Position numbers and translations under genes: made by a program. The notes beneath the pieces are model-generated. The model was not told the DNA's origin. It saw only the letters and a list, made by a program, of their open reading frames with translations, and made no database searches. Shown in pieces: positions 13,655-47,497 of a stretch of DNA of 64,000 nt. Every line of letters begins with the position of its first letter. The stretch's first letter is position 1. Origin of the DNA: an uncultured Acidimicrobiia bacterium. Lineage in GTDB: Bacteria; Actinomycetota; Acidimicrobiia; IMCC26256; JAENVU01. The stretch lies in NCBI GenBank assembly GCA_963765075.1, contig CAVXVA010000008.1, forward strand, positions 133,078 through 197,077, given 5' to 3'.

Positions 13655-13661
13655 GTCCTGC

Positions 13662-13994
13662 GTGGCACCCGACGGTGATGACGGCGATCTCGTGTTCAAA
13701 GCGCTGGGCGATCCGACCCGACGTCTGCTGCTCGATCTCCTGTTCGAGCGGGAAGGTCGCACCTTGACCGACCTCGAATCGGGTCTCGCCATGACTCGGT
13801 TCGGCGTCATGAAGCACCTGAAGGTGCTCGAAGGCGCGGGGCTCGTCGTGACCAAGAAAGCAGGACGGGAGAAGTTGCACTACCTCAACGCAGTGCCGAT
13901 CCGGCTGGTGCACGACCGTTGGATCGACAAGTTCACCGAACGGCAGGTGTCCGCACTCGCCGATCTCAAACAGGCCCTGGAGGAAATCGCATGA
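13662..13994 (+). CDS. ArsR/SmtB-family transcriptional regulator
   Basis: HTH region LGDPTRRLLLDLL...LTDLESGLAMTRFGVMKHLKVLEGAGLV. The ORF track starts at GTG 13632, inside the putative operator. I prefer GTG 13662 (about 7 nt after the -10, possibly leaderless), with 13653 also possible. Confidence 0.7.
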   Translation: MAPDGDDGDLVFKALGDPTRRLLLDLLFEREGRTLTDLESGLAMTRFGVMKHLKVLEGAGLVVTKKAGREKLHYLNAVPIRLVHDRWIDKFTERQVSALADLKQALEEIA

Positions 13995-14491
13995 CCGACA
14001 CGACGACCCGCACCACCCAGATGCACCGCGTCTACATCAAGGCGACGCCAGAGCAGGTGTGGCAGGCGATCACCGATCCGGAGTGGAACGCACGGTACGG
14101 CTATCCCGGCCACACCGAGTACGACCTCACCCCTGGCGGTGCCTTCCGCGCCGTCATGCCCGCCGACATGGTGCGCGACTTCGGTGTCCCTGAGGTTGGC
14201 TGCGACGGTGAGGTCGTCGAGTCCGATCCGCCGCACCGCCTGGTCCAGACCTATCGGTTCTGTTTCGACGAGGCGCAGATCGCGGAGGGGTTCCACGAAG
14301 TGATCTGGGAGATCCATCCCGAACACGGTGGGGTGACCCGTTTGACCGTGACCCACGATGTGACCGATGCACCCATCACTGCCGCGATGCTCGAAGGTTC
14401 GACCGACCTGCAAGAGGGCGGCGGCGGATGGGACTGGATTCTTTCCGGTCTCAAGACGATGCTCGAGACCGGCGAGACCTTGGCCGGCTGA
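13991..14491 (+). CDS. SRPBCC-superfamily protein (AHSA1/Aha1-like)
   Basis: ATG 13991 overlaps the arsR stop (ATGA). It shows the ATPEQVWQAITDPE pattern, and ArsR+AHSA1 is a typical gene pair. Confidence 0.7.
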   Translation: MTDTTTRTTQMHRVYIKATPEQVWQAITDPEWNARYGYPGHTEYDLTPGGAFRAVMPADMVRDFGVPEVGCDGEVVESDPPHRLVQTYRFCFDEAQIAEGFHEVIWEIHPEHGGVTRLTVTHDVTDAPITAAMLEGSTDLQEGGGGWDWILSGLKTMLETGETLAG

Positions 14492-14581
14492 GCAAACGCC
14501 ACGGGCGGATCAAAGGGCTCAAGCCGTCTCACATGGGCGCCGATCAGAGGGACGGGTATTCCTTCGAGCAGTGAGAACGCC

Positions 14582-15715: not shown

Positions 15716-15719
15716 CTCC

Positions 15720-18312: not shown

Positions 18313-18347
18313 CGCTCGGCCAACCGCTGGGGTGAGGCGGTAGCTGC

Positions 18348-20573: not shown

Positions 20574-20646
20574 TCCCTATGAACGCCTTCAGGCGATCCG
20601 GCAGGTGCCGATACCCACCAGATAATCGGATGGCCCAGGAGGACCG

Positions 20647-21534
20647 ATGAACAAGCCGCGTGGAACGAAACGGGCTCGATGGACGAAAGCGGTGGTCGTG
20701 ACGCTGGTCGTGGCCGGCGCGACGGCAGGGTGTGGGACGGATGGGAATGGACGAAACAGGTCCGCGTCGCCACGGCGTGAGCCGGCGTTCGCGATGCAGG
20801 AGGAGATGCCGCACGAGATGGCGCCGATACCCGAGTACGCCGCGGCATGGAGGCTCACGGTCGGTTCGTCCGCGGCCGATGGCGTCGTGACCGGCAACGC
20901 CGTCGACTTCTCGGTCCAACCGGAGGGCTTCGTCCTGGACTGTGACTACGCGGGCAAGGCGTCGGCTCCCGGTATCGGTCAGTACCACGTCACCCTCGAC
21001 GGCGCGCTGATCGATATGGAGTGCTCTACCGAGCAGCAGGTTTCCATGCAGAATGTCAAGCCCGGCCATCACGAGATCGCGGTCGTTGCAACGCTGAACG
21101 ATCACACCGAAGTGATGAACGCCGAGGACGCGTTCTCGTTCGAGTACCGGCCGACGTCGCCGCTTCCCTTCGAAAAGGGCGATCACTTCGACGGTCGCCC
21201 GAGCATCCGCATCGTGTCACCGACCTCCGGCACCGTCGTCTCCGGGAACTTCGACGTGGTCGTTCAGGTGTCTCGCCTCGACATGGACTGCGGTCTCTTG
21301 GGCAAGAAGCCGGTCCCGGGGTACGGACATTGGCATGTCAACCTCGACTCGACGATCGGTCCGATGATGGGAATGGCCACGATGGTCGGGATGAGCTGCA
21401 CCAATGTGCTGCGGGTTTCGACCAAGGGTCTGACGCCGGGCTCCACCCACAAGCTGATCGCCCTTGCGGTGAACGGGCTCCACTCGCCGCTTGAACCGCC
21501 GGTCGAATCCAGCGTCGACGTCGTTATTGGCTGA
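20647..21534 (+). CDS. lipoprotein with two tandem copies of a G-x-H/Y-H-V-x-L-D domain
   Basis: Signal peptide plus lipobox (VVAGATAGC). Internal repeat: GIGQYHVTLDG...GHHEIAVVATLNDH versus GYGHWHVNLDS...STHKLIALAVNGLH. This is possibly DUF4399-like (unverified). Confidence 0.65.
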   Translation: MNKPRGTKRARWTKAVVVTLVVAGATAGCGTDGNGRNRSASPRREPAFAMQEEMPHEMAPIPEYAAAWRLTVGSSAADGVVTGNAVDFSVQPEGFVLDCDYAGKASAPGIGQYHVTLDGALIDMECSTEQQVSMQNVKPGHHEIAVVATLNDHTEVMNAEDAFSFEYRPTSPLPFEKGDHFDGRPSIRIVSPTSGTVVSGNFDVVVQVSRLDMDCGLLGKKPVPGYGHWHVNLDSTIGPMMGMATMVGMSCTNVLRVSTKGLTPGSTHKLIALAVNGLHSPLEPPVESSVDVVIG

Positions 21535-23266
21535 CCGGCGCGTCGGTCCCTGCGGGCGACCGGAGCTCGGCGCTCCGACCCAGCGTGCCGGCGACCGCAT
21601 CGAGCAGCTCATCGGGAGTGAACGGTTTCTGGAGGAGGTTGGCCTCGTCGTGGGCCACGCCTCGGCGAAGGATCTCGTCGTCGGTGTAGCCGGACATGTA
21701 GAGATAGGTCAGGTCGGTCCGGAGGTCTCGCGCCGCCTCGATGACGGCGCGACCGCCCATGTCCGGCATCACGACGTCGGTGAGGAGCAGGTCGATGCGG
21801 GCCGGGTCCCGACCGAGGATCTCGAGCGCGGCCACCCCGTCACGTGCGCTGAGGACGGTGTATCCGTCGCGCGTGAGTGTGCGCACGACGAGGTCACGGA
21901 GCGCATGCTCATCCTCGACGACGAGAACCGTGTCCGACGCCCGGCCCCGGGCCTTGGGTTTTGGGGTCGCGGGCGCGGCGGTGGGAGCGTCGCCGGTCGC
22001 TGGGAACGCGACCTCGAAGCGGGACCCTCCACCGGACGGAGTCGTGATGGAGATGGTCCCGAAGTTCTCCTTCACGATCGCATCGACCGTCGAGAGCCCG
22101 AGGCCGGTGCCCTTGCCTGGGGGCTTCGTTGTGAAGAACGGGTCAAAGATTTGGTCGCGGATTGCTTCGGGGATGCCGGTGCCGGTGTCGGTGACCACCA
22201 AGCGCACCCGGCCCAGCACCGGGGTGACCTCGATTCTCAGCTCACCACCGGTGGGCATCGCGTCGCGGGCGTTCACGGCGAGGTTCAGCACGAGCTGCTC
22301 GATCTGGGTTCGATCGGCGCGGATGGTGGCGGTGCCCGGGTCGACGGCGATCGATACGCGTATGTCCTCACCGATAGTTCGTGCGAGCATGCGCTCGAGT
22401 TCCCGGACGACGCGGCCGAGATCGAGCACGGTTGGCTGCCGAACCTGTTTGCGACTCATCGTCAGGAGCTGGCTGGTGAGATCGGCGGCTCGGCCCGCGG
22501 CCTCGTCGATGTCCTGGAGTGACTCGGCGGTCGCCGGATCACTCGCGGCGAGGTCGTCGATGAGCAACGAAACGTTGCCTCGGATCACGGTGAGAAGATT
22601 GTTGAAGTCGTGGGCGATACCGCCCGCGAGCAGACCGATCGCCTCCATTTTCTGTGCTTGACGAAGCTCGTCGTCCTTGCGTCGCAGTTCGGCCTCGGCC
22701 CGTTTCCGGTCGGTGACGTCGATCATGCAGCCTCGGGTCTGTACGATCCGTCCGTCGGCGTCCTGTTCCGGGATGGACTCGTCGTAGAACCACACGATCT
22801 CGCCGCTCTTGCTGATGACCCGGTACTCCGACCGATTTCGGTGACCCGCGTTGTTGAAGGCGATCTCCTTTTGGAGTCGTTCCCGATCATCGGGGTGCAG
22901 GATCTGCATGAAGAAGTCCGGACTCGAATACCACTCCTCGGTCGAGTAGCCGATGTACTCCTCGAGTTTCGGGCTGATGTACATCGCCGAGCCCACCTCG
23001 TCGGCCGCGTCGACGTAGATGATCGCCGGGATTTCCTGGACGAGGTTGCGGAACATCGCCTCCTCATCCTGGAGTTTCTGCGCGAGCCGCAGGTGCCGAC
23101 GAGCCACTTCGATAGCCGTAGCTCCGGCGACCAGCGTGCCGATCGCGAGCGGAGCCGATCCCACCTGAATCGACGCGTATCCGAGGGCGCCGACGGCGAT
23201 CGACAGCGTGAGTAACAGGCCGACGGACACGTTGCTGGATCGCGAACCTGAGTGTCGCCTCATCAC
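21524..23266 (-). CDS. membrane-anchored hybrid sensor histidine kinase (PAS, HisKA, HATPase_c, REC)
   Basis: 580-aa ORF. H-box GGIAHDFNNLL and REC VLVVEDEHALR...TDVVMPDMGG...YMSGY. Confidence 0.85.
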   Translation of the reverse strand: MMRRHSGSRSSNVSVGLLLTLSIAVGALGYASIQVGSAPLAIGTLVAGATAIEVARRHLRLAQKLQDEEAMFRNLVQEIPAIIYVDAADEVGSAMYISPKLEEYIGYSTEEWYSSPDFFMQILHPDDRERLQKEIAFNNAGHRNRSEYRVISKSGEIVWFYDESIPEQDADGRIVQTRGCMIDVTDRKRAEAELRRKDDELRQAQKMEAIGLLAGGIAHDFNNLLTVIRGNVSLLIDDLAASDPATAESLQDIDEAAGRAADLTSQLLTMSRKQVRQPTVLDLGRVVRELERMLARTIGEDIRVSIAVDPGTATIRADRTQIEQLVLNLAVNARDAMPTGGELRIEVTPVLGRVRLVVTDTGTGIPEAIRDQIFDPFFTTKPPGKGTGLGLSTVDAIVKENFGTISITTPSGGGSRFEVAFPATGDAPTAAPATPKPKARGRASDTVLVVEDEHALRDLVVRTLTRDGYTVLSARDGVAALEILGRDPARIDLLLTDVVMPDMGGRAVIEAARDLRTDLTYLYMSGYTDDEILRRGVAHDEANLLQKPFTPDELLDAVAGTLGRSAELRSPAGTDAPVSQ

Positions 23267-23424
23267 CGAACCCCTTTCGACACCTCACGCGGCCGAGTTG
23301 AGGGGGAAAGCCCGGCTCTGTCCGACTTTGGTCAAGGAGTTCCTTGGGAGTGTCAACTCGTTTTGCCCAAGTCCCTTTTTTGACGGTTCAGGTAGCTCAC
23401 GGGCGAGCCGAACAACAGGATGTG

Positions 23425-25539
23425 ATGTCGACGGGGCAAGAAATCAGAACGGCGCACATCTTGGTCGTGGATGACGAGTCGGCGCTGCGGCGGATCCTGG
23501 CCCGGATCCTGGAGCGTGAAGGCTACGAGGTGGCCACTGCCGGTGACGCGACGGCCGCGCGGGAACTGCTTGCGACGAACAGCTTCGACTTGGTGATCAC
23601 CGACATCACGATGCCGGGCGAAGACGGCCTGTCACTGGTCCGAGGGATTCGCATCGCCTGGCCGGAGACCGCGACCCTGATCGTCTCGGGCGTCTCGGAC
23701 GCCGAGGTGGCCGACCAGGTCCTTGCCTGCGGAGCCTCGGGCTATGTGATGAAGCCATTCCAATCGAGCGCGGTGATCATCGAGGTGCAGCAGGCCATCG
23801 GTCGCCACCTCCAGGAGCAGGAACGATCCAACGAGTTGGAGGCGACGACTCGCCGATTGGCCGATACCGAGGTGCGGTTCCAGGCGCTCACAGCTCAGAG
23901 TCCGCTGGCGATCCTGTATTCGGATGTCGACGGCCGGTGTGTCTATGTCAACGACATGGCGTGCGACCTCGCCGGCAGGCCCGCAGCTGCGCTGCTCGGG
24001 CTCGGTTGGGTCGATGTTGTGCATCCTGACGACAGCGAGGCGGTACTCGCAGCGTTGGCGCACGCCCGGGAGTACCGGTCGTCCTTCGTCATGGAGCACC
24101 GCATCCGCACCCAGACCGACGCGGTCCTCTGGGGCGAGCTCCGCGTTGGACCCATCGTCGGGGACGACGCCGTGGTTACAGGCTTCCAGGCGATCATGAC
24201 GGACATCACACAACGGGTGGAATATCACGCGCAGCTCGAGCGGCAGTCCACACACGACATTGTCACCGGGCTGCCAAACAGCGCGGTGGTGGCGACCTGG
24301 CTCGACTCGGGCGTCGAAGCGAACCGACCGGTCATCGCGATCGCAGTCGAACGCCTCGACGCACTGCGCGACGCGGTCGGTGTCGAGATCGTGGATGCGG
24401 TGCTCGGTGTGGTTGCTCGTCGAATCTCGGAACTGGTGGCCGGTCGGGCTCAGATCGGCTCATTGGATCGTGGCGTGTTTGCCGTCGTACCGCGAGCGAG
24501 TGGAGACGAAGATGCCGTGCGCCTCGCAGAGGAGTTGCTCGAGTGCGTCGAGGCCGGGGAATACCCGGAGTGTCCGAGTGCCGTGACCGCGAGCGCCGGC
24601 GTCGCCATGACCGATGGTTCTGTCAGTCCCATGCTCGTCCTCCGGGATGCCACGCTGGCGGCGCGACGAGGTGGGACCACGGGTGGGTCCCGCACGCGAT
24701 TCGCGGATGTTGCAATCCGCGAGCAGGTGATGCGACGGTTCGCGCTCGAGAACCGCCTCCGAGAAGGAATTCACAACGGCGAGATTTTCGTTCATTACCA
24801 GCCCGAGTTCGCCGTCGACGGTCGCTTGACCGGGGTCGAAGCGCTTGCTCGGTGGCAGTGCGACGGCGAAGACATTCCTCCCGATGTCTTCATCCCGATC
24901 GCCGAGCGGGCAGGCCTGATCGGTCACCTGGGAGCTTCGGTGCTCGAGCGGGCGTGCCATCAGGTTCAGTCCTGGCGGCGGACGCGCAAGGATCTCGTCG
25001 GCCTCGTCATTGCGGTCAATGTCTCCGCCTTCCAGTTGGCCGACGACACGTTCGTCGCGACGGTCGAGCAGATCTTGAATCGGACCGTGCTTCCCGCGCG
25101 CAATCTGTGTCTGGAGGTCACCGAGAGTGCGGTGATGGCAGATCCCGAGGTGGCGGTCGCCCAGCTTCGACGCCTGCGGGATTTGGGGGTCGCCATCGCG
25201 CTCGACGACTTCGGCACTGGCCACTCGTCGTTTGCTCAGCTGACCCGGCTACCACTCGACCTTCTCAAGATTGACCGCGCCTTCGTCGCCGACATGACCC
25301 AAGATGCCCGCAGCCGACAGCTCGTCGACGGCATGATCCACCTGGCGCATGTCCTCGGTCTGACGGTCATCGCCGAGGGCGTCGAGACCCACGAACAGCG
25401 GGAGTCACTCTCGCGACTCCACTGCGACCTTCTCCAAGGGTTCCTCCTGGCTCGTCCGGCGCCGCCCGACTCCCTGCCGCTGCAGCCGCTCGAGTTTCAC
25501 CATGTCGGAGCCGAGCTCGTGCAGCGTTACGCGCCCTGA
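23425..25539 (+). CDS. response regulator with PAS, degenerate GGDEF and intact EAL domains (likely c-di-GMP phosphodiesterase)
   Basis: Start ATG 23425 follows aacagga. REC ILVVDDESALRR...TDITMPGEDG. The GGDEF site reads LDRGVFAV. EAL motifs QPEF, EALARW, EVTES, DDFGTGHSS, KIDRAF, AEGVET, QGF. Confidence 0.85.
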   Translation: MSTGQEIRTAHILVVDDESALRRILARILEREGYEVATAGDATAARELLATNSFDLVITDITMPGEDGLSLVRGIRIAWPETATLIVSGVSDAEVADQVLACGASGYVMKPFQSSAVIIEVQQAIGRHLQEQERSNELEATTRRLADTEVRFQALTAQSPLAILYSDVDGRCVYVNDMACDLAGRPAAALLGLGWVDVVHPDDSEAVLAALAHAREYRSSFVMEHRIRTQTDAVLWGELRVGPIVGDDAVVTGFQAIMTDITQRVEYHAQLERQSTHDIVTGLPNSAVVATWLDSGVEANRPVIAIAVERLDALRDAVGVEIVDAVLGVVARRISELVAGRAQIGSLDRGVFAVVPRASGDEDAVRLAEELLECVEAGEYPECPSAVTASAGVAMTDGSVSPMLVLRDATLAARRGGTTGGSRTRFADVAIREQVMRRFALENRLREGIHNGEIFVHYQPEFAVDGRLTGVEALARWQCDGEDIPPDVFIPIAERAGLIGHLGASVLERACHQVQSWRRTRKDLVGLVIAVNVSAFQLADDTFVATVEQILNRTVLPARNLCLEVTESAVMADPEVAVAQLRRLRDLGVAIALDDFGTGHSSFAQLTRLPLDLLKIDRAFVADMTQDARSRQLVDGMIHLAHVLGLTVIAEGVETHEQRESLSRLHCDLLQGFLLARPAPPDSLPLQPLEFHHVGAELVQRYAP

Positions 25540-33437: not shown

Positions 33438-34016
33438 GTGACCCATCCCATGCCCACATCGTCTTCACCGCGACTCTCGCTGAGTCATACGACACTTGCC
33501 GTGCGCGACCTCGACGCGATGCTCGACTTCTATCGCGAGGTGCTCGGCTTCGTCGTCACCAACCGAGGCGAAGCCCCGGGCGGATCCGAGATGGCGTTCA
33601 TCTCCCAGGACCCCGCGGAGCATCATCAGATCGTGTTCATTTCCGGGCTTCCCGGCACTGATCGTCAGTTCGTGATGCTCGACCACCTGGCGTTTCGCAC
33701 CAACAGCCTCGACGACCTCCGTGCGATCGGCGTTCGTCTCGAGGAGGCCGGCGTCGACGGGGTCATCCCGATCTCCCACGGCAACGCGTGGTCGTTGTAC
33801 TTCACCGATCCCGAAGGCAACGGCCTGGAGTGCTTCGTCGACAGTCCTTTCCATGCCGCGCAGCCGTACGCCGATGGTTTCGACCTCGGCGCCGACGACG
33901 CGGCGATCGAGGCCGACACGCGCGCGAAGATCCAGGACGACGACGAGTTCCAGTCGATGGCGGACTGGCAGGCGCAGTTCCGGGTTCGCCTCGACGGCGA
34001 TGCGGCGGGAGACTGA
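33438..34016 (+). CDS. VOC-family (glyoxalase/extradiol dioxygenase-like) protein
   Basis: 192 aa. LSHTTLAVRDLDAMLDFYREVLGF...LDHLAFR...SLYFTDPEGNGLE pattern. Confidence 0.75.
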   Translation: MTHPMPTSSSPRLSLSHTTLAVRDLDAMLDFYREVLGFVVTNRGEAPGGSEMAFISQDPAEHHQIVFISGLPGTDRQFVMLDHLAFRTNSLDDLRAIGVRLEEAGVDGVIPISHGNAWSLYFTDPEGNGLECFVDSPFHAAQPYADGFDLGADDAAIEADTRAKIQDDDEFQSMADWQAQFRVRLDGDAAGD

Positions 34017-34019
34017 CCC

Positions 34020-34796
34020 GTGGACCTCGGAATCGCGGGTCGCACGGCCCTCATCTGCGCCTCGTCGCGCGGACTCGGGTTCGCCTGTGCCGACTCGCTC
34101 GGACGCGAGGGTGTCCACCTGGTCATCAACGGCCGGATAGGAACCCTCGCGGGTGCTGCGGACGAACTACGCGGCCGCCACCGCGTCAGGTGTCGACGGA
34201 TGCGGGCGACATCGCGGAGGCGGCAACCCGCGATCGGTTACTCCAGGTCTGCCCCGAGCCCGACATCTTGGTGAACAACAACAACGGCCCGGAACCGGGA
34301 CGATTTCAGGATTGGGATCGCGCGGACTGGATTGCTGCGCTCGACGCCAACATGCTTGCGCCGGTACTGCTGATCCGCGCCGTTATCGACGGCATGTCGG
34401 CGCGCCGCTTCGGTCGGATCGTCAACATCACCTCGGCCATGGTGAAGACACCGATGTCGGCCATGGGGCTCTCCACCGGTGCGCGAACTGCGCTCACTTC
34501 GGTGAGCAAGGCGCTGTCTCGAGACGTGGCCTCGGCCAACGTCACGATCAACAACCTGCTGCCGGAACGCTTCGACACCGCCCGCCAACAACAGATGGCG
34601 GAGCTGCATGCCGCGCTCGGCGACATCACCGTCGAGGCGGCCTACGCAGCAGATGAAGGCGACGATCGCCGCGAAACGGCTGGGCCGGCCCGACGAGTTC
34701 GGCGATGCGTGCGCGTTCCTGTGCAGTGCACAGGCGGGCTACATCTCCGGTCAGAACCTCCAGCTCGATGGCGGCAGCTACGCAGGCCTGTTGTGA
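34020..34796 (+). pseudogene. short-chain dehydrogenase/reductase needing two frame corrections (or base-call errors)
   Basis: Frame 0 gives MDLGIAGRTALICASSRGLG...HLVINGR. The frame of ORF 33788.. gives DIAEAATRDRLL...PDILVNNNNGP...NITSAMVKTP...TINNLLPERF. Frame 0 resumes (ORF 34608..34796) with MKATIAAKRLGRPDEFGDACAFLCS...GQNLQLDGG. Shifts at about 34165-34200 and about 34649. Confidence 0.8.
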
Positions 34797-36460
34797 CCGA
34801 CGAGTCCGCGAGCGGCTCCGCATCGGACCTCGACGTCGACGTCCTGATCGTCGGTGGGGGCCCGGTCGGAATGTTCGGCGGCATCCTTGCCTCGCGGCAT
34901 GGACTCACTTCGCTCGTGGTCGAACGTCGGGACGGACCGCAGACCGCCCCGGCCGCGCACGTCGTCAATGCCCGCACCTACGAGATCTGCCGGCAGGCGG
35001 GGCTCGACATGGATCGAATCCACGCCGCCGGCAAGGAACCGGCCGACTCCGGCCACGTCAATTTCGTGACCCGACTCAGCGGCGACGTGATCGGCCGCCT
35101 TCCGTTCGAACGTCAGGGCGATGGATGTCTCGACCTCACGCCGACCCCGCTCCGCAACCTCTCCCAGCACCGCTTCGGACGGATCCTGGCCGACGAGGTC
35201 CGAGGGTCGCCGGGTGCCGAGCTGCGCTACAGCCAGCAGTGGGAAGGCGCCGAGGAGATCGGCGATGCGGTGATGTCCGTCGTCACCGATCTCGAGACCG
35301 GCACGACGACCAGGGTACGAAGCCGCTACGTCATCGGGTGTGACGGCGCGGGCAGCCGGGTCCGCAAGATGCTCGGGATCGAGATGCTGGGCCCGCCGCT
35401 GATCCAGTGCTATCTGATGATCCACTTCGGCGCCGACCTCCGTGCGCTCACCTCTGACCGGCCGGCTGTGCTGCATTTCGTGCTCGACCCGGAGGTCGGT
35501 GGCGCCTTCATTGCCCACGACGTCGAATCGGATTGGGTGTTCATGCACCCCATTGACCCAACCCGGGAATCCGTCGAGGACTACGACGACGCTCGCTGCC
35601 TCGACATCATCGACCGGGCCGCCGGCACCCCGCTCGGCGCTGAGATCCTGGGCAAGGGCGCGTGGTGGATGAGTTCACAGACCGCCGAATCGATGGGCGG
35701 CGGACGCATCTTCCTCGTGGGCGATGCTGCGCACCGATTCCCCCCGACCGGTGGTCTCGGTCTGAACTGTGGGGTCCAGGACATCCACGGATTGATGTGG
35801 CGCCTCGCCGCAGTTTCGAGTGGCCACGCGTCGGCCGCTCTGCTCGACTCGTACGGAACCGAACGCATTCCGGTTGCCCAGAACAACGCCCATCAGTCGT
35901 TGACCAACGCGCTCAAGATGGTCCACCTGTCTGCCGCGCTGGGGACCGATGTCGAGCCGACGACCGAGCAGCTCCACGCGTCGTTGACGGATCCGTCGAA
36001 GGCCGATGAGATCGCTGCGGCAGTCGAGATGCAGCGGGAACACTTCGACCTGATCGGACTCCAGCTCGGCTACGTCTATGGCGACGGGGCGCTCGTCGCC
36101 GAGGAGTCGCCCCCTGAACCCGAGTCGCCGAGCACCTACGTCCCCACGGCGCGCCCCGGCGCGCGGTTGCCCCACGCCTGGTTGCGCGAGGTCGGCGGCA
36201 CGTCGACGCTCGATCTCGTCCCCGTCGACCGACCCGTGCTCTTCAGTTTCGGGGAGCACGACGTCTGGGCCGACGCGCTCGGCACCGACGATGTCGCGGC
36301 GGTGCGAGTCGGCGTCGACACGCCCTCGCTCGACTCGTGGCAGAAGGTGTGCGACGTCGGCGACGGTGGCGCGCTTCTGGTGCGCCCCGATCACCACGTG
36401 GCGTGGCGGGCTCGTGACGCCGCGCAACGTCGGCACACGGACCCGCGCTCGACGCGGTGA
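34793..36460 (+). CDS. FAD-dependent aromatic-ring monooxygenase (PheA/TfdB-like)
   Basis: GTG 34793 overlaps the SDR stop (GTGA). VLIVGGGPVGMFGG, CDGAGSRVR, GDAAHRFPPTGGLGLN. Part of listed ORF 33788..36460. Confidence 0.85.
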   Translation: MTDESASGSASDLDVDVLIVGGGPVGMFGGILASRHGLTSLVVERRDGPQTAPAAHVVNARTYEICRQAGLDMDRIHAAGKEPADSGHVNFVTRLSGDVIGRLPFERQGDGCLDLTPTPLRNLSQHRFGRILADEVRGSPGAELRYSQQWEGAEEIGDAVMSVVTDLETGTTTRVRSRYVIGCDGAGSRVRKMLGIEMLGPPLIQCYLMIHFGADLRALTSDRPAVLHFVLDPEVGGAFIAHDVESDWVFMHPIDPTRESVEDYDDARCLDIIDRAAGTPLGAEILGKGAWWMSSQTAESMGGGRIFLVGDAAHRFPPTGGLGLNCGVQDIHGLMWRLAAVSSGHASAALLDSYGTERIPVAQNNAHQSLTNALKMVHLSAALGTDVEPTTEQLHASLTDPSKADEIAAAVEMQREHFDLIGLQLGYVYGDGALVAEESPPEPESPSTYVPTARPGARLPHAWLREVGGTSTLDLVPVDRPVLFSFGEHDVWADALGTDDVAAVRVGVDTPSLDSWQKVCDVGDGGALLVRPDHHVAWRARDAAQRRHTDPRSTR

Positions 36461-37487: not shown

Positions 37488-38701
37488 TCACACCTCTTGG
37501 TACACGATGTCGGTGATGTCCATGAGTGCCAGCCCACCGCCGCCGTCGACGCGCCGCGGACCGTCGGACAGCGCGTTCGTCAGCGTCGCCAGCGCGATGT
37601 CCGCCGACATGTTCTGGTCGATCCGCATCCAGGTGTACAGGCCCTCCACAAGCCCGTCGGTATGACCACCCAGGAGCAGGTGCGTATAGAGCCCGGGGGA
37701 ACTCCGCGACCAGCCGCTGCCCGACACGTTCCCATTGATGCCCGACAACCTTGCGTCGTCCAGCTGTGAGCCGGCGTTGTTCAAGATCCAGTACGCGTGC
37801 ATGTCGTCGAGCTTCTCGCTGGCGACCCTCCTGGGGTTGACGTTGACGAGATTCAGCCAGGTGTGCTCGATCTGGAGCTGCAGCACGTCGACCGCGATCA
37901 GCGCCCGCACGAGCGTCACCAGAGCCTCGAGCTGAGCCTTCGGCGGAAGGTAGACGCACAGCTCCTTACCCTTCTTGTCAAGGCTCGGGAGGTTGCGGAT
38001 GGCCGATACCTTCGTCGCGTTGACACCGTTGTGCACAGCGCCGTCCTGTCTCATCTGGTCGGCTTGCCCGGCGTTGCCCCACGGATCGTTCACGAACTCG
38101 ATGCCGATCGACGTCCCGATCAGGGTCGGCAGGTGATCGCGAGCTCACAAACGTCGAGGAACTGTCGGATCGTGCCGTCGCGATCGATGCAGAAGTGCGC
38201 CATGGGCCGGTACGAGTGCTGGACGCCACCACTGTCCCGCCAGGTTGCGACCCGGAAGTCGCTGACGTGCAGCAGATCGCGGCTCCCGGCCGTCTCGTGG
38301 AGAGCGATCTTGTTCAGCGAGGCCGCCGGGCGGTATCCGCCACCCGAGTAGACACGCATGCCGGGGTGGAGCGGATCCGCGAAGAACCGGTCTGCGTCGC
38401 GGGCGGCGTCGTCGAACGTGCCATCGGCCTTCTGGTACATGCCACGCCAGTTCGTCAAACCCGCAACCGCTCCCTTTTCGGCGCCGTCAACGACGAGGGT
38501 GTCGGTCGCCGCCGGAACGAAGTCACGAATGCGTTGCTGGTTGCTCGTCGAGCCGCCAACGGACACGCTCCCTGAGCTAGTGCTTGCGAACGCTGCGGCT
38601 TGATAGGCGTCCTTGTAGTAGACGAGGAGTGGAACTGTGGCGTCCGCGTAAGCGGTGATCGTCTCCACGACACGCTCGGTCTTTGCCATGAAGGTCTGCA
38701 A
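37488..38701 (-). pseudogene. island gene C: amidase_2 (PGRP-type N-acetylmuramoyl-L-alanine amidase) domain protein, one frame disruption
   Basis: ORFs 38120..38701 and 37488..38093 join across about 38100-38125 (...DGTIRQFLDV / ARDHLPTLIGTSIGIEFVNDPW...). Signatures KIALHETAG, HFCIDRDGTIRQ, SIGIEF, GGHTDG. No signal peptide. Likely start ATG 38689. Confidence 0.65.
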
Positions 38702-38719
38702 GTCTTCGTAGCTTACGCC

Positions 38720-41700
38720 TTACCGGGAATCGACCACGATGCGGTAGGTCGTGTTGACACTGCTGGCGTCGCCGGGCCAGCGGTCACGAGGCGACCGTGG
38801 AGAGCGCGTCGTCGATCGATCGAGATCGGTCACCCAGATCGGTCCGAAGCGCTCGAGAATGTCAACGTAGTGCGAGACTGGGAACTCGGCATTCGGCACG
38901 TCGTACTGCATGCCGGCGACACCGGCGACCTCGGTGACCTGGTCAAGGGCAGCCCGGCGTCGATGTACGGCAGCCACTCGGCACCGATCGAAGGGATGTA
39001 CTCGTGGACCGACTGGGCGGCCTGGTTCTTCCAGTTGGCCATCATCGTGGCGACGGTCGCCCAGCACGCCATCGGCGTGTCCTGGCGCAGTGGTCCAACG
39101 TGCCGGGAATGGAGACGTCGTGCTTTGTCGCCTCCGCCTCGATCACGACCTCGAGGCTCTTGAGGTTTCCCTCGGCGTCGCTCTCGGTCGCCTTGACCGA
39201 GCCCGCACCTTCCTGCGAGAGCTGGACCGCGGACCTGATCGAGGACGGAGTAGCCCTCCGCTCATCGCGATCGGCCTCCGCCCCCGCGGCGGCACCGCCG
39301 TCGATCTGTTGCTGCGCGTGGGCCTTGACCAGCGTGCCGTATTCCTCGTCGTTCAGCGCTCCCTTCGTCTTGGCCGAGTCGAGCGTCTCCATGATCTTGT
39401 CGGAGTGCTCAGTGTTGTGGGACTGCATCGCCATACCCTTCGCCATCTCGGCAAAGGCCTTCGTGTTCTCCTGGTTGGAGAGGTAGGTGCGCATCGCGTT
39501 CTGCTGGGTGGCCCCCAGGCCGGTGATGTCGTTGAAGATACCGGCCTTGCCGAGCAGCTCGGTGATGCCGCCGAGTCCCTCGCCCAGCGCTGGAAGTGCC
39601 GGCGCGTTCTGGATGTTCACGAGCGGCGGCGCGAACGCTCGAACGCGGCCTTCCAGTCGGTGACGGTCGGCGTGGGCGTGGCGACCGGCAGGAGCGCGGT
39701 TGGCTCGTCGGTACGGAAGCGTTCCCAGTCCTGTGACGAGTTCTCCTTCACGCGCTCGCAAGCGTCGCACACGCCCTGCACCGCTTCGAGGAACACCCCG
39801 TCTGACGGCACACTGATGCGGTACGGGGGCACCGGCTCCTCCGGCCGATAGTGGTCCATGATCGAGCACGCGCTCGGTCTCGCCTTCCTCGTCGACCTCC
39901 GAGAGGTAGGACTGGCTCACGCGGTAGCCCGCGGCGACTGGGAAGATGATTGAGTTCCCCGAGATCCCGAGCAGCTGGTTCTTCACAACCGACGCGAGGC
40001 TGCGGGCCGGTTGCGGGACGCCGAAGTCGTTGTAGACATCGATGTTGAACCCGTCGAGCAGCATGTACCGACGGTCTGGATCCAGCTGTGTCCAGAGGAC
40101 CTTGTTGTAGTGCTCGATGTTGCTGTTGAGGTGCTCGATCAGCTTGCGGGCGAGATACCGGTCCTCGTCATGCGGGTCGCGCTGCTCGGAGGAATTCATC
40201 GGAGCGTTCACGACGTATGGAGAAACCACGTTGTCGTACAGATCGGTGTTGACGGTCGTGTTGACGACATAGCCGTCGGAGTGGCTCGCCGTGTAGTGGA
40301 TGCTCAGGCCCTCGATGCTGAGCGTCGCCTGGTCCCAGAAGTCGGCCCAATAGCTGATCGTCTTGGAGTAACGGATTCGTACCTCGGTGATCTCCCGCCT
40401 GTCTTCGACGTGCGGGCTCCGAAGTTCATTCTGATCAGACGCCGGCCGCCGTGGTACTTCCCCGCTGGCGTCGTATCAAGAGTGGTAAAGGGCTCCAGCG
40501 TGATCGTGTTCTCCGTGAGGGCCTCGAAGATGCGCGGCGCGATCTCCTCGTTGAACGTCTGATCCCACTGTGAGATGGTCTTGTGGGCGAAGTAGTTCTG
40601 CAGGAAGGCCTCGAGGTCGTCGTAACCGAGCAGCCCGGCGACGGCTCGGCACAGGCGGTCATCGCGACTTCCGGGCTCGAAGAAGTCCTTGAAGTTGATG
40701 ACCTCGATGACGTCTTCGGGACGGCCCGTCTGGAAGTTGTCGTAGATACGGATGTGGGAGTCGATGAACTTCTCCCGCTCCTCCCAACCGTGCTTCGAGA
40801 TGTCCGGCCCGAGGAAGGCGTCGGCGATGAAGCCGAAGAGGCCACCACCGTGGTGGTTCACCAGCACCTCGCGCTTGACCACCGGGAAAGACTTGACCCG
40901 GTCGTAGACGGTCTTGGGGCGCGGGATGTCGACCCGCAGGTTGAAGTGTCCGGTCACCGACGTGATCGGGTCGTCGCAATAGGCGCCGGCAGGGAAGTCG
41001 ACGAACTGGTAACCGGACTGGATGCGGGCGTTCGCGTCGAACGCCGGGATCAACGGATGCTTGGCGCGATAGCGGAGGAACGGTACGGGCTGGAGATAGG
41101 TGTTGGCCGGGAGCGGAAGGAGGTGCTGTGCGAGCACGTCCGACCACTTGTAGATGTTGCTCGGCGAGAACTCCGTCATGAGGAGAGGGACGAAGATGCA
41201 CTCCTCGACCGACTCGAGCTCCTGGAACACCGCGAAGTGCCGCAGCACCTCGAAGTACATCATCGTGAGCGCATGGCAGTGGTTATGGTTGGCGATGACG
41301 TCAGTCGTCAGGTCGTACGTCTGGCCCTCCCGGACCGTCGTTACCACGGTCGCATTCAGCTGCCGATAGCTGCGCGCGTTCTGCAGGATGCCCTGTCTCA
41401 GCTGCTCGCCGAAGAACATCGCAGTGTTGCGCGAGCTGTTCTGCGACGTGTTGGCTTCGGAGTTGGAGTACCCGCCGGCGACGCCCAGCGATGCCCCGAT
41501 ACCCCCGTACGACACGCCGACTCCGAGCCCGGCACTGACGCCAGCAGTGTTCGAGTCGCTGTGACCACGCAGCGCCTCAGCGACGTTGCCGCTCACCTGA
41601 TCCAGCACGTTCCGTTCGTTGATCAGGCTGGCGCTCAGCGACTCCGCTTGGGAGATCGACTGCGACTCGGACGCCTGAAGCCGATGACGTGCGTCAATCT

Positions 41701-42943
41701 GGACGATCTCACGTTTCTGGCCAGGCGCCAGGGCGAGGGAGTAGAGCAGGTCACCGAGCGAGTAGCCGTCGGCCTTGAACACCGCCTTGTAATGCAAGAC
41801 GTGGCCGGTTGCGATCGTCACCGCCTGGTAGAGCGACAGATTCTCATGGGCACCGGGAGCGTCCTGCCAGCGAATCGGGTTGGCGAGGCTGACCCGGTCG
41901 CGGGTCTGGGTCACCGTCCCGCCCTGGAGGTCGAAGTTCCAACCGTCGGAGTTCCGCACCAGCGTGTAATTGGCAACGTCCGGATCGGAGGTCCGCACGA
42001 TGCCTCGATACGAGAACTCGGCCAATGTGCGATTCGGCACGGAGAGGTTCACGCACCCGGCACCGAGGTCCTGGGTGTAGTCACCCGAGCCGACGAGGTC
42101 TGCCTGGTCAGGGAGGCGCCCAGCCCCGTTCCCGCCGTGACAGTCGCAGTCCTCACCGTCCGCGTGTGGGCAGGTCGGGTCGGTGACGAGCAGGTAGAGG
42201 AAGTCATCCGAGATGGTGTCCGGCGAATTCTCAGCGTGGACCGCGATGTCGGCCGGATGGTCGGGCGCAAGTGACGTCAGCGCCTGCGCGTGGACATAGT
42301 CCCCTGACGGGTAGGGCATCCAGAAGTTGCCCGACGAGTCGGTGGACGCCGCCCCGACGACCCTCCACACGCCGTCGTCGGTCTCCTTGGCCTGAACGAT
42401 GACGGTGACGTCCTTGACCGGGCAGTCCTTCACGAGTTCGACGACGCGTCCGCGCAGCCGCTTGCCCACCGACGTCGGCCCCTCGCCGGGATCCAACCGC
42501 ACAGGCCTCACACGGTCGACGACGATCTCGAGCTCCGCGAGCTCCTCCGAACGCGCCGGATGCGTTGCTGTCCACTGCACGACTCCGTCGAAGGACTTGA
42601 CGGTGACCGCAACCAGCGCAGGCCGGCCTCCGACGACGATCTTGCGTGACTCGGCGAAATCGAAGGGAACCCGTCCGTGTTCGAGTCGGTTGACGCTGTT
42701 GGCCCAGTCGTAGCGGAAGGACGTCGCGAGCGAACCGTCGGAAGGTTGGTACTGCGCTTCGAGTTCGTAGAAGACCAGATCCTTCTTCGTGAGCGCCGGT
42801 CGACCGTCGGAACGCAATTCGAAGGTGCCGGCGATCGTCAGTGGTGCGAGCTCGCCGAGCTCGAGGGGGAAGTCGAAAAGCGCGGGCAGGTACCGGACGA
42901 CCCACTTGAGGAGCTCGGGCTCGGGCTCGAGCCCGATGCTCAC
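38720..42943 (-). pseudogene. island gene B: ~1,400-aa multidomain protein of unknown family with a C-terminal papain-like Cys-peptidase module; at least 5 frame disruptions
   Basis: ORFs 40304..42943, 39042..40229, 39617..39859, 38830..39072 and 38720..39067 tile one reading unit. This needs 1-nt shifts at about 40414-40417, 39853-39863, 39620-39645, 39093-39106 and 38947-38949. GTG start 42943 overlaps the gene A stop (GTGA). Confidence 0.6.
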
Positions 42944-43591
42944 GAGGGACCGTCGCAGGACCTCCCGATTCTCCGGCTGAAGTCGTCGAAGATGGTGTCG
43001 GGTCCGATTTCGGTGGCATCCAGATACCGAATGAAGAGCAGTGCCAGGAACTGCTCGTCACGCCCGGTCAGATCTGACCAGACACGGGCGTACTCTTCGA
43101 GGCGCTCGGCGTTGACGAGCACGATCCGACGTTCCAACTCAGGCCCGGGATCGGCATCCGTCGCGCACTCGAGCCCCGACGCCGCCCACAAGCGCGCCCC
43201 GTCCGAGAATGCCCCACTGACGATCAGGGGGATTGCGCGCACGATCGTCGTTCCGACCACGGCACTGTCGATGCTGAACTCGACGGGAATTCCGAAGGCC
43301 AACGACGCCAGTCGGCCCTCGGCGAACGCCGTAAGGAAGAATCGAACGAAGCGGCTCCGCGCTGCCGGTCGGCGCGCCGACGAGCCCTGACGCCGACGCG
43401 ACGATCGAGTACTGATCAGCGTCGAGCCGCTGATCCGCTCCTACCGGGTCGGTTTCGACTAGTACCCGCTCGATGCGGTCGTCGCCAGCGACGAAATCGA
43501 AGACCGGCAGCTGCGCTCCTATCTGAACGGAATCCACCGGCGCATCTACGTCCGCGCCGCGATAGGCGAAACTTCGCTGCAGCGTGACCAT
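42940..43591 (-). pseudogene. island gene A: ~217-aa orphan protein, one frame disruption
   Basis: ATG 43591 follows GGAGAGGGGG (MVTLQRSFAYRGADVDAPVDSVQIG...). At about 43335-43357 the sensible reading moves to the frame of ORF 42940..43302 (...RFVRFFLTAFAEGRLASLAFGIPVEFSID...). No family recognised. Confidence 0.5.
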
Positions 43592-43666: not shown

Positions 43667-44080
43667 GTGATTTCCAGGGCCACCTTCGAATGTCGAGACA
43701 GGGGGCGTCCGCCGACCGGGACCGCAGAAAGAACTGACACTGACAAGAAGCGCGCGTCCTATGAAGGCAAGCTCAAGCGTCTCGAAGCCGAACGCCAGAA
43801 GCTGCTCCAAGCCCACTACGCCGATGCCGTACCGCTCGATCTGATGAAGAGCGAACAGGCGCGCATCACCGAAGAGATCGCCAGCACCAACAACGCGCTG
43901 CAAGGTGCGGTGTTCGATGCTGAGCGCATCGAGCAGACTGCCGAGCGGGTAGTGCAGCTCCTGAAGAACTGCCAGACGACCTACGAGGAGATGGGGCCCC
44001 ACGAACGCCGGCTCATGAACCAGGCCTTCTTTCACAAGATCTGGGTCACCGAGGAAGGCGTCGTCGGCTGGGAGTACTAG
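43667..44080 (+). pseudogene. C-terminal fragment of a large serine recombinase gene
   Basis: Coiled-coil/C-terminal motifs KLKRLEAERQKLLQAHYADAVPLDLMKSEQARI and RRLMNQAFFHKIWVTEEGVVGWEY. The resolvase catalytic domain and zinc ribbon are absent. The frame is interrupted by TAG at 44078. Confidence 0.65.
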
Positions 44081-44254: not shown

Positions 44255-44342
44255 TGGCGGAGGGAGAGGGATTCGAACCCTCGGTGAGTTTCCCCACACA
44301 CGCTTTCCAAGCGTGCCGATTCGGCCGCTCTCGCACCCCTCC
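44255..44342 (-). tRNA. tRNA-Ser (anticodon GGA), CCA encoded
   Basis: Reverse complement has acceptor GGAGGGG, anticodon arm CACGC-TTGGAAA-GCGTG, a long variable arm, T arm GAGGG-TTCGAAT-CCCTC, and terminal GCCA. Confidence 0.9.
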
Positions 44343-45560: not shown

Positions 45561-47497
45561 ATGTCGTTCCAGGCCCTGTACCGGAAGTACCGACCGCAAC
45601 GGTTCGGCGAGCTGGTCGGTCAGGACCACATCACCGCGGCGCTGCGCAACGCGGTTCGAGAGAACCGGATCGGCCACGCCTACCTCTTCTCCGGGCCGCG
45701 CGGAAATGGCAAGACCACGACGGCTCGCGTCCTGGCCAAGGCGCTCAACTGCCTCGATCTCGGTGACGACGGGGAGCCGTGCGGGCAGTGCGAGAACTGT
45801 GTGTCGATCGCGGCCGGGACCTTCAGCGATCTGATCGAGATGGACGCCGCGTCGAACCGGGGGATCGACGACGCCCGAGACCTCGTGAGCCGGATCAGTC
45901 TCGGCCTCGGCGCCACCTCCAAGCGGAAGGTGTACCTCCTCGACGAGGTGCACATGCTCACTCCGCAGGCGGCGAACACGCTCCTCAAGACCATCGAGGA
46001 ACCTCCGGCTCACGTGGTCTTCATCCTCGCGACCACCGAACCCGAGAAGGTGCTGCCCACGATTCGGTCGCGCACGCAGCACTTCGAGTTCAAGTACCTG
46101 ACCGTCGACGAGTTGACCGGCCTGCTCGCGTCGGTCCTGACCGACGAAGGTGTCGAGTTCGAAACCGATGCGTTGGCGATCGTGGCACGCGCAGCCGGCG
46201 GTTCGGCGCGCGACTCCGAGTCCCTGCTGGACCTGGTCCTGGCGCGCGGCGGTGCCGTCACGGTGGCGGCGGTCGAGGCCGCGCTCGGCGGCGCACCCTT
46301 CGAACTCCAGATGACGATCCTCGACGCCGTCGCGGCCGAGGACGTTGCCGGTGTCCTCACCGGCGTCGCCGCCTTACTCGATGCCGCGCACGACCCGCGC
46401 CGTATCGCCGAAGGATTGCTCGGGTCGCTGCGAGACGCGTTCATCTCCGTGGCGGGTGCGGGTCGGGTCGCGATCGACGAGCCCGACGAGGTCCGAGCCC
46501 GACTCCGGACCGTCGGGGAGACGATGGGGAACGCGGTACTGGTGCGCGCCCTCGAAACGTTGGGGCAAGCCATCGTCGACATGCGGGGCACCGATGCCGC
46601 CGATCCGCGCCTCGTCTTGGAGATTGCGCTGGTCCGGCTGGCCCGGCGTGATGCCGCGGGCTCGCTGCAAGCACTCGCCGATCGTGTCGACCGACTGGAG
46701 GCCCGCCTCGAACCGGGCGGTGCGCCGGTATCGGCCGGCGCGGTACCCGCGGCTCCGACCGCGGCTGCGCCCCACCTACGCCCGAACCAACGCCCGCACC
46801 CACGAGGTCGGCGGCGCCGGCGCGGCCGGCCCGGACGCGACGCGCCGCGGCCGAACCCGAGGAGCCCGCGGCGCCGACACCTTCGAGCGATGCCGACGCG
46901 GCTCCGGTTCCGCGGGGTCGACCGGCCGCGCTGGGCGCACTGCGCAAAGCCGCGGCGTCGACGTCCCCCGCCGGTGCCGACCCGGAACCGGCTCCGGCAG
47001 CTGCGGCGGATGCCGACGCGCCGGCGCCGCCGACCGACCCGGCGGTGGAGTTCGACTTCTCCGACGTGATCGTGGCCTGGGCGAGGGTGTTGGACGCCGT
47101 GCCGAAGTCGCTGCGGGCATCGGTGATGGAGGCCCAGCCGGTGCGGGTCGAAGGCAACGTCATCGTCTTCGGCGTGGCTCGGAATCACATCGACGCGGTG
47201 AAACCCAAGTTCCAGAAAGACGCGGATGCCATCCGTCAGGCGTTCATCCAGGAACTGGGTGGGCCGCCGCGGTTCAAGTTCACCCAGCAGGAGTGGGGCG
47301 ACGGCGAAGGTCCGCCGCACCGCCTGAACGTCGCCCCCGAACCCGAACCGCCACCGGAGTTCGATGACGCCATCGACCTGGTCGATCCGGAAGAACTCGT
47401 GGACGCACCAATGAGTGAGGGGCCGGCAGTAGATTCGGTGACACGTCTTGCCGATCAGTTCGGTGCGACGGTCGTGGAAGAGCAGCCGAAGCCGTAG
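45561..47497 (+). CDS. dnaX: DNA polymerase III subunit gamma/tau; the full-length product needs a -1 frame change at about 46770-46773
   Basis: The N-terminal AAA+ clamp-loader part is intact (GPRGNGKTTTARVLAKALNC, CGQCENC, LDEVHML, SRTQHF). Frame 0 then gives ~100 aa of Arg/Pro junk to 47069. The -1 frame gives a Pro/Ala/Glu linker that runs into ORF 47045..47497 (VEFDFSDVIVAW...). Confidence 0.85.

Follow-up and report, generated by a model that had tools for sequence, protein, structure and literature searches.

Polymorphic toxin systems, for which the CdiA, Rhs, LXG and MuF types served as the reference for comparison (Zhang et al. 2012, PMC3482391), have a long and conserved N-terminal body followed by a junction motif of sharp conservation; the C-terminal modules are highly variable and move between lineages, and a "releasing" peptidase may be present inside the protein. 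The same layout was found in a giant gene on the minus strand of a 64,000-nucleotide stretch of DNA from an uncultured Acidimicrobiia bacterium (assembly GCA_963765075.1, contig CAVXVA010000008.1, positions 133,078 to 197,077), hereafter called the window. In the family to which this gene belongs, the body and the junction are conserved and the C-terminal modules have been exchanged between lineages. The protein differs from the described polymorphic toxins by the absence of a recognised trafficking domain or secretion system and of an adjacent immunity gene, by a different, unannotated body fold, and by identifiable ends that are almost only cell-wall enzymes, and not nucleases, deaminases or ADP-ribosyltransferases. 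We propose, with a probability of roughly 40%, that it is a self-contained bacteriolytic toxin which follows polymorphic-toxin logic but uses a new delivery body.

Several other described systems share part of this organisation. As in the bacteriolysins and the peptidoglycan-targeting bacteriocins (lysostaphin-type class III, pesticin, the colicin M family), there is no signal peptide, the order is receptor binding, delivery and enzyme, and killing would proceed by degradation of the wall or of its precursors; one member of the family even carries a Pesticin domain. The giant protein exceeds them 5-10 times in size and possesses a putative core of its own for membrane insertion instead of the known domains parasitising Ton/Tol, and no immunity gene was detected. 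The large clostridial toxins and MARTX toxins are also single polypeptides of about 2,000 aa or more, devoid of a classical signal peptide, in which binding modules and a hydrophobic delivery region are joined to a cysteine protease and an enzymatic effector. Here the effector is C-terminal, so that the order is reversed, the protease is of the papain-like C70 type and not a cysteine protease domain of their kind (CPD), the target is peptidoglycan, and no similarity in sequence or fold was detected. With the beta-pore-forming toxins (aerolysin, lysenin, anthrax protective antigen, CDTb) the protein appears to share an elongated beta-sheet bearing a Gly/Ser-rich insert of alternating hydrophobicity, which would be long enough for a transmembrane hairpin. 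It differs from them in that no significant structural or sequence match was observed, the insert measures about 110 aa and contains two amphipathic helices, and oligomerisation is a prediction. The C-terminal cassette recalls the two-domain phage endolysins of the LysK type (CHAP plus Amidase_2), as a papain-like module accompanies an Amidase_2 murein amidase, but in the present case the papain-like module is a C70 peptidase, a type that clusters with C39-type processing proteases (PMC10318531), the cassette is carried by a 1,350-aa body, and there is no phage context. Lastly, the C70 module resembles AvrRpt2, the type III effector of MEROPS family C70: PF12385 was matched above threshold, and the family consensus has the Cys, His and Asp motifs in the same order (CWA…, S-x-HA, DP-x-x-G). 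AvrRpt2 is a small effector of plant pathogens delivered by a type III secretion system, whereas here the module is an optional internal part of a giant protein from soil and aquatic bacteria.

In the three minus-strand frames of the window, the gene appears as a chain of open reading frames (ORFs) switching phase. The tblastn alignments with intact homologues were colinear across these switches, and the tiled ORFs thus form one gene. A frameshift-aware protein-to-DNA alignment was written for this analysis, using as query the intact 2,032-aa protein of Chitinophaga sp. CF118 (NZ_FOMK01000015.1, locus L017, 297-6395). Its residues 1-2032 aligned with the window from 43591 to 37491 at 46% identity. 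The product of the giant gene begins with MVTLQRSFAYRGAD, which is the conserved N-terminus of the family, and ends with …DITDIVYQEV, matching the C-terminus of the Chitinophaga protein. The repaired product has 2,037 aa for a gene span of about 6.1 kb. An earlier note, made from the letters of the window, had placed a giant protein at 38720-42943. Its view that the tiled ORFs are a single gene was right, the alternative of unrelated fragments being ruled out by the colinearity with intact homologues in both types of alignment, but the gene extends beyond these limits on both sides (Table 1). The end at 38720 was not retained, as the in-frame TAA at 38722-38720 is the product of three indels (-1, -1, +2) within 20 nt. 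Nor is the papain-like module the C-terminus: it is followed by an Amidase_2 domain scoring above its cut-off.

From its N-terminus, the protein comprises a conserved start and two beta-sandwiches, then a Cys-rich linker that leads to a novel beta-sheet core bearing a Gly-rich insert. Next come an alpha/beta body and the invariant junction, and last a variable lytic cassette, which in the window copy is a Peptidase_C70 followed by Amidase_2. Conservation of the N-terminus was assessed in 12 homologues from five phyla. For the structure, two AlphaFold2 (AF2) models were built with 48-64 homologues, with a mean predicted local distance difference test score (pLDDT) of 70 and 72. The eight features described in the earlier note were all recovered in place on the minus strand and are conserved in the family. 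Both beta-sandwiches were modelled with confidence. In Foldseek, the first one matched tandem Ig-like adhesin and pilin folds. The second was related to transthyretin-like proteins of the PDB by the family profile (E=3.9e-5) and to transthyretins by Foldseek with a probability of 1.00. The Cys-rich motif is located in a disordered linker of low confidence (pLDDT <50, residues 261-303). The core is formed by the AF2 strands 378-405, 410-425, 536-551 and 559-584. Its residues G, G, L and LAP are invariant. Across 48-64 homologues the LAPGQ motif, the Gly positions and the N-x-N-H-x-H cluster are invariant or more than 90% conserved, and these motifs are consequently not due to chance.

Table 1. 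Features of the giant gene, its flanking tRNA and the shell genes of related loci. Positions are those of the window, except for the shell genes, which are given in their own loci.
Feature	Position	Strand	Remarks
Whole gene	37488..43591	(-)	ATG 43591-43589, TGA 37490-37488; at least 8 frame segments
N-terminal region	42950..43591	(-)	conserved start MxTLQxxFxYxGD…PVFDF; frame breaks ~43369, ~42950-42995
First beta-sandwich	42509..42856	(-)	AF2 model m0b9da5319903, residues 30-145, pLDDT 82-94
Transthyretin/CarboxypepD_reg-like beta-sandwich	42179..42466	(-)	Pfam PF13620 E=9.6e-4, under its cut-off; GRVVELVKD… at 42451-42236
Cys-rich motif (DCxC) DPTCPHADGEDCDCHGG	42131..42181	(-)	family consensus DCxC…GGxCxNL
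Family-defining core	41174..42031	(-)	long four-stranded antiparallel beta-sheet bearing the Gly-rich insert (AF2)
LAPGQ motif of the core, GYSLGDLLYSLALAPGQKREIVQID	41767-41693	(-)	family form GYSLGDLLYSLxLAPGQ, invariant
NHNHCH motif of the core	41290-41273	(-)	N-N-H-H positions >90% conserved
Insert in core	41357..41653	(-)	amphipathic helix (41653-41564), Gly-rich beta-periodic hydrophobic hairpin (41548-41465), polar S/N stretch, amphipathic helix (41428-41357)
Conserved alpha/beta body	39640..41173	(-)	RRYMLLDGF 40073-40047; GxCDACE 39769-39755; frame breaks ~40398, 39863, 39639
Junction, "pre-toxin"-like linker	39294..39614	(-)	IQNAP … FxDITGL … QQQIDGG; variable region begins beyond
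Peptidase_C70 (AvrRpt2-type papain-like)	38700..39100	(-)	PF12385 E=2.5e-10, 40.9 bits vs cut-off 19, stitched translation
Amidase_2 (PGRP/T7-lysozyme type)	37890..38314	(-)	PF01510 E=2.3e-6, 28.4 bits vs cut-off 26, stitched tail; LHETAG 38302, HFCIDRDG 38197, SIGIEF 38111; frame break ~38136
C-terminal extension of lytic module	37488..37889	(-)	GGHTDG 37670-37653; 47% identical to the L017 C-terminus
tRNA-Ser(GGA)	44255..44342	(-)	ARAGORN; flanks the upstream side of the giant gene
Shell gene, L008	6903-7862		related locus
Shell gene, L063	8323-9225		related locus
Shell gene, L079	7770-8756		related locus
Shell gene, L076	1714-2655		related locus
Shell gene, L087	2-472		related locus

The insert, of about 110 aa, is placed by AF2 between the two strand pairs, at the tip of the long beta-sheet. 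Hydrophobic moments were computed on the family column means. The two flanking segments showed moments of 0.74 and 1.09 at 100 degrees versus 0.23 and 0.30 at 170 degrees, corresponding to helical amphipathicity. The situation was reversed in the 28-aa Gly-rich tract, with a moment of 0.73 at 170 degrees and 0.14 at 100 degrees, that is, a beta-type periodicity. This tract had the highest hydropathy of the region (a 19-residue peak of 1.23-1.28), and the hairpin modelled there by AF2 is of low confidence. The tract had been described as resembling a glycine zipper; it is present and rich in glycine, but its periodicity is not helical, and we infer membrane insertion as a possible property. A glycine zipper is needed for the translocation of the unrelated toxin Tde1 (PMC10240207), which provides a precedent and not evidence.

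The matches of the giant protein in Pfam, NCBIfam, PADLOC, PHROGs and a PDB sequence search were limited to the transthyretin/CarboxypepD_reg-like sandwich, Peptidase_C70 and Amidase_2. The body itself matched nothing in these collections, in agreement with the earlier note, which could assign it to no family; with the family profile, the PDB sequence search returned only the transthyretin-like proteins. A full-length match to a characterised family was not observed either. Against the PDB, Foldseek found sandwich folds only with the full model and nothing at E<0.1 with the model of the core, whose non-significant neighbours included the phi29 tail knob (the best one), the pore state of anthrax protective antigen, CDTb, lysenin and aerolysin. 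Against BFVD, the core had a sole match, significant at E=2e-8, the uncharacterised Yasminevirus protein A0A5K0U6Q4. As modelled, the core is a novel fold, and its only significant structural match is this giant-virus protein.

The junction (IQNAP…FxDITGL…IDGG) marks the limit between the conserved and the variable parts. Its Q, N, P, F, G and L residues are invariant in 59 of 59 tails, regardless of the module found downstream. A Pfam scan of these 59 tails beyond the junction identified Peptidase_C70 in 39, DUF2272 in six, Amidase_2 in five, Beta-lactamase2 in three, GH25 and C39_2 in two each, and Pesticin, M15_4, C11 and DUF5675 in one each. At least 25 unrelated sequence types of terminal modules were counted in 57 proteins. 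The C-termini are polymorphic, and the modules that could be identified are mostly wall-active. In a local profile search, C70 always came directly after the junction where present, and was usually followed by 300-570 aa more. Because the same terminal modules occur with and without C70, the protease is an optional adaptor and not the terminal effector. C70 clusters with the C39-type processing proteases and not with NlpC/P60 (PMC10318531). In intact homologues the C70 domain was detected with E=1e-19 to 4e-27. In the window it is interrupted by about nine single-base indels and the apparent TAA; the putative catalytic residues, assigned by family consensus, are partly readable, with the Cys in CWAT (39066-39055, within MACWAT) and the His in ALHGRL, in another frame. 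The Asp motif reads VDSR followed by the stop. The terminal module of the window, of the N-acetylmuramoyl-L-alanine amidase type, groups with modules from Chitinophaga, Taibaiella, Janthinobacterium and Pontibacter, and the same module in L017 scores E=5.5e-9. The polymorphic-toxin logic perceived in the earlier note was thus upheld as regards the invariant junction and the diversity of the modules. It was not upheld for the terminal place of the protease, and the typical outfit is lacking as well, as the recognisable ends are nearly all cell-wall enzymes, in place of the wide range of toxins in the classical systems, and no conserved immunity gene or partner adjoins the gene.

The family is large. 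Among the 95 relatives (1,200-1,460 aa) returned by an indexed protein search, many had been shortened by gene calling. In species-representative genomes (185,579 species genomes, one per species), 321 stretches were confirmed by tblastn. An exhaustive phmmer search gave 2,183 clusters at 50% identity with E<=1e-3, of which 532 had E<=1e-30. Where the gene is intact in the 78 retrieved loci, its product has about 1,650-2,520 aa. Members were found in Bacteroidota, Pseudomonadota, Myxococcota, Actinomycetota, Bacillota, Acidobacteriota, cyanobacteria and one Methanoperedens metagenome-assembled genome. The hosts include Chitinophaga, Pedobacter, Aquimarina, Taibaiella, Duganella, Massilia, Janthinobacterium, Microbulbifer, Dyella, Pseudomonas, Corallococcus, Paenibacillus, Arthrobacter and Zhihengliuella. 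One member (P0040) belongs to the fungus Thelonectria olida, and two loci (L003 and L007) have fungal-type neighbours (Fungal_trans, a TRI12 major facilitator superfamily transporter, F-box); these occurrences imply a transfer from bacteria to fungi. At NCBI the members are named "hypothetical" or "papain-like cysteine protease family protein", and a search of the literature found no description of the family. Distant plasmid-borne relatives (26-33% identity) have kept nothing but the core. The S/G-rich insert and NxNHxHAL are still present in them; the Cys of HNHCH is not conserved throughout. These core-only proteins end in an OmpA-like domain on a Psychrobacter plasmid (L089:5969-11239), in a Hedgehog/M15 peptidase domain (E=9e-52) on a Bacillus tropicus plasmid (L090:6341-9658) and in a tectonin domain on a Streptomyces clavuligerus megaplasmid (L091:5827-8898). 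In Segetibacter sp. 3557_3 (L022:~3300-17730), two full-length copies of 2,172 and 1,895 aa lie in tandem and differ in their terminal modules.

This distribution bears on a phage origin. The protein could be a phage-derived structural or ejection protein (tape-measure, tail-lysin or knob-like), left at the tRNA by a prophage. T5 Pb2 and the tail-associated lysins are large proteins that combine a membrane-active, Gly-rich segment with a murein hydrolase at the C-terminus, and the giant protein resembles them in its size, in its Gly-rich segment, predicted to be membrane-active, and in its C-terminal hydrolase. The first place of the phi29 tail knob among the non-significant neighbours of the core, a weak Pfam match to phage_tail_N (E=1.5e-3) and the adjacent tRNA point in the same direction. 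However, there was no PHROGs match, and no conserved phage genes surrounded the gene in the 78 loci. Viral occurrences amount to one in 2.9 million IMG/VR contigs (L088, IMGVR_UViG_3300014205_009237, a putative viral contig, 48% identity) and one in 50,697 phage records, compared with the 321 stretches in species genomes. The phage-tail reading was rejected on this distribution; it is largely refuted and we consider it very improbable.

The giant gene stands alone. When the 1,182 ORFs neighbouring it in 85 loci were clustered all against all, no conserved partner gene emerged, save for the encapsulin shell gene described below, which recurred in four loci; nor was any neighbour conserved across the 78 loci. 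As a rule the giant gene is monocistronic and preceded by a long spacer, and the genes that follow it often lie on the opposite strand. It might still be a component or a cargo of a larger toxin machine, either a Tc (ABC) toxin complex or an encapsulin shell. Tandem paralogues (1,900 and 1,414 aa, 36% identical over 1,250 aa) with a conserved 96-aa ORF between them were found in L004/L005:3984-23665 and L006:1591-11858. In L004 and L005 they are preceded by integrases and followed by genes for TcA_TcB_BD and SpvB/TcdB/RHS (TcB-TcC) proteins. A Linocin_M18/encapsulin shell gene is located directly upstream, on the same strand, in five loci (Table 1). The giant proteins of four of these (L008, L063, L079 and L087) share an extra N-terminal domain of about 110 aa (…LWFG-x-D-x-P-x-P…YF…EY…C-x-C-x-GRQVP) which is absent in the other members and may be an encapsulin-tethering domain. 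Against this reading, at least 70 other loci lack such neighbours. None of the Tc subunit domains (VRP1, neuraminidase-like, TcA_TcB_BD, SpvB, TcdB_toxin_midN, RHS/YD) was found in the protein or in its homologues, and the Tc genes are neighbours in one locus group only. In the window there is no gene of either kind near the locus, and the protein begins directly with the family N-terminus, without the extra domain. The Tc lead was rejected as a general context, and the Tc-component, encapsulin-cargo and phage-tail readings all fail for the window copy. We regard a role within a larger machine as very doubtful, hardly more probable than the phage origin.

We propose the following mechanism for a self-contained toxin, which can be likened to a bacteriolysin or pesticin of very large size that follows the logic of polymorphic toxins. 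Since there is no signal peptide, the protein would be released by lysis or by some other route. The N-terminal sandwiches would bind the envelope of the target. The core may then oligomerise and drive the amphipathic Gly-rich hairpin into the membrane, with the conserved His cluster possibly acting as the trigger. The C-terminal peptidoglycan hydrolase would thereby be brought to the wall, and the C70 protease, in the proteins that have it, could cut the terminal module free.

A number of observations weigh against this proposal. Neither a secretion signal nor a conserved immunity gene was found, which is unusual for an interbacterial toxin. In agreement with the earlier note, no Rhs, PAAR, LXG or WXG domain and no Sec signal was detected; Pfam and NCBIfam contained no trafficking domain or secretion signal matching the protein, and its N-terminus, conserved across phyla, is not signal-peptide-like. 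No recurrent downstream family that could represent an immunity gene emerged from the clustered loci, although highly variable small ones could escape detection. Pore formation is a prediction, with a pLDDT of about 30-45 in the insert and E>0.1 for every PDB match to the core. About half of the terminal module types have no Pfam match. Finally, the shell genes and the Tc genes described above place a few members in a different context.

The main functional rival is lysis from within. The protein would act inside its producer as a fused "holin plus endolysin", a device for suicide or autolysis that could serve, for instance, in abortive infection or in a programmed release of what the cell contains. 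The cytoplasmic membrane would be opened from the inside by the core, after which the producer's own wall would be broken down by the C-terminal hydrolase. The absence of a signal peptide and of an immunity gene is explained equally well by this reading and by the toxin, and the absence of partner genes is also in its favour. The terminal repertoire (Amidase_2, GH25, M15, a pesticin/T4-lysozyme-like domain) is of the endolysin type, the intrinsic protease could be the trigger, and some copies adjoin genes for structures released by lysis, namely the encapsulin shell and the Tc toxins. Conversely, there was no PADLOC match and no enrichment in defence islands in the contexts read. The adhesin- and lectin-like N-terminal sandwiches, like the tectonin domains, point to an external surface as the binding partner, and the family is present in fungi, which are organisms without peptidoglycan. 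This reading appears unlikely to us.

A bolder form of the toxin proposal can also be considered. The body of about 1,350 aa might be an unrecognised delivery machine, independent of any secretion system, with a new beta-sheet fold for pore formation or translocation (a hairpin between two amphipathic helices, triggered by N-x-N-H-x-H) and interchangeable wall-lytic warheads, which it would bring into other cells or onto their surface. It would have been captured by fungi and by a giant virus and, in one branch, tethered to encapsulins to form "armed" nanocompartments. Taken as a whole, this scheme is speculative and probably goes too far. There are old reports of bacteriocin activity for linocin M18-type particles, and armed nanocompartments might underlie them.

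The window copy raises the separate question of its integrity. The alignment required 8-12 frameshifts, at the positions listed in Table 1 and at about 39097, 38948, 38806 and 38777. Almost all lesions are 1-nt deletions, nine of them lie within 400 bp, and no length has been lost. A protein fragment of 97% identity (P0152) led to a second, independent assembly of this locus (ENA ERZ25039524 contig_34006, here L086). It covers window 44259-32157, from which it differs by 105 mismatches and 79 indels over 12 kb (98.4% identity). None of the window lesions is shared with L086. At the site of the TAA, L086 reads YRIVDPIPGKAYYEDL, in accordance with the DPxxG motif of the family; its Asp motif is DPIPG. 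When the L086 alleles were introduced at 15 lesion sites of the window, a single open frame of 2,216 codons was obtained, giving the 2,037-aa product from the ATG. These sites are 43375, 43358, 42977, 40400, 39866, 39636, 39094, 38940, 38820, 38802, 38777, 38733, 38732, 38713 and 38138. L086 is itself visibly noisier: it has 22 frameshifts of its own in the giant gene, and the neighbouring FAH, monooxygenase and short-chain dehydrogenase (SDR) genes are damaged in a comparable way, its indels being evenly spread (7.2 per kb in the giant gene and 6.6 per kb in the flanks). A merge taking the longer allele at every indel left eight frame breaks, because L086 also contains insertion errors.

Other genes of the window are affected. 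The essential gene dnaX (45561-47497, plus strand) shifts frame at 46770-46790, in a Pro/Ala-rich linker: its N-terminal ATPase part is in the frame of 45561, and its conserved C-terminal part (…VEFDFSDVIVAWARVLDAV…) extends to 47497 in a different one. An indel of the assembly would explain this; a programmed shift is the less likely alternative. A break in such a gene indicates that the assembly contains indel errors. The SDR gene at 34000-34800 (plus strand) is in three pieces, with frame changes at ~34190-34210 and ~34650; L086 has compensating indels at 34187 and 34647. Exact-product look-ups for independent short-read contigs retrieved the fragments only from the window's own 1.01-Mb contig. 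An identical recR is carried by the short-read run ERR11593397.

The window copy could therefore be either mis-assembled or very recently inactivated. If it has genuinely decayed, it would be a pseudogene, the dead remnant of a horizontally acquired toxin gene beside the tRNA-Ser, with no current function. In favour of this, 6.1 kb contain 8-12 frame breaks and an apparent stop, whereas the genes in about 21 kb around it can be read without a break; a truncated recombinase-like ORF (a label which Pfam does not support) is adjacent, and the G+C content is slightly low. Against assembly error also count the concentration of the window lesions in the giant gene and one SDR gene, the intact state of FAH, monooxygenase, TetR, recR, metX, metY and moxR, a ratio of nonsynonymous to synonymous polymorphism (pN/pS) of 1.69 in the giant gene between the two assemblies (63 nonsynonymous and 12 synonymous changes), and a mismatch density there 2.4 times that of the flanks. 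On the other side, L086 has no lesion in common with the window and its alleles repair all of them into a complete 2,037-codon ORF; the lesions are nearly exclusively 1-nt deletions, unaccompanied by larger deletions, an insertion sequence element or length loss; they are clustered, the "stop" arising from three nearby indels; and dnaX is frame-broken too. As L086 is noisy, the absence of shared lesions is not decisive against a pseudogene. The two cases are not separable and we lean towards error: consensus errors appear somewhat more probable than true decay, which comes close behind.

On its upstream side, the giant gene is flanked by the tRNA-Ser(GGA) and a signal recognition particle RNA. 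Its G+C content is 0.62-0.65, versus about 0.67 for the window. The only signs in favour of its description as part of an island were the adjacent tRNA-Ser and this slightly lower G+C; a search for direct repeats of the tRNA-Ser resembling attachment (att) sites found none. The 137-aa ORF at 43667-44080 (plus strand), between the giant gene and the tRNA-Ser, is also present in L086. It is coiled-coil-like (…LLQAHYADAVPLDLMKSEQARI…) and might be a C-terminal fragment of a large serine recombinase, which it resembles, but Pfam gives no support for this. Elsewhere in the window, at 15696-25536, four large signalling genes of the PAS/histidine-kinase/response-regulator or GGDEF-EAL type (~820, 742, 586 and 745 codons) are clustered; they are unrelated to the giant gene.

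Overall, the observation made in the earlier note was confirmed and extended, and its interpretation was partly supported. At the level of annotation, the locus probably illustrates how noise in a long-read consensus can disguise an intact 6-kb gene as a row of fragments or as a pseudogene. If the toxin proposal is true, the family would constitute a new, very large class of antibacterial lytic toxins, with more than 2,000 clusters at 50% identity in most major bacterial phyla and transfers to fungi. These toxins would work without any known secretion or delivery system, by means of a delivery-body fold which has no significant match in the PDB, and the encapsulin-linked branch would represent a new kind of encapsulin partner. 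The terminal modules form a natural library of at least 25 types, half of them unannotated, which are candidate new cell-wall enzymes and are modular enough to be engineered.

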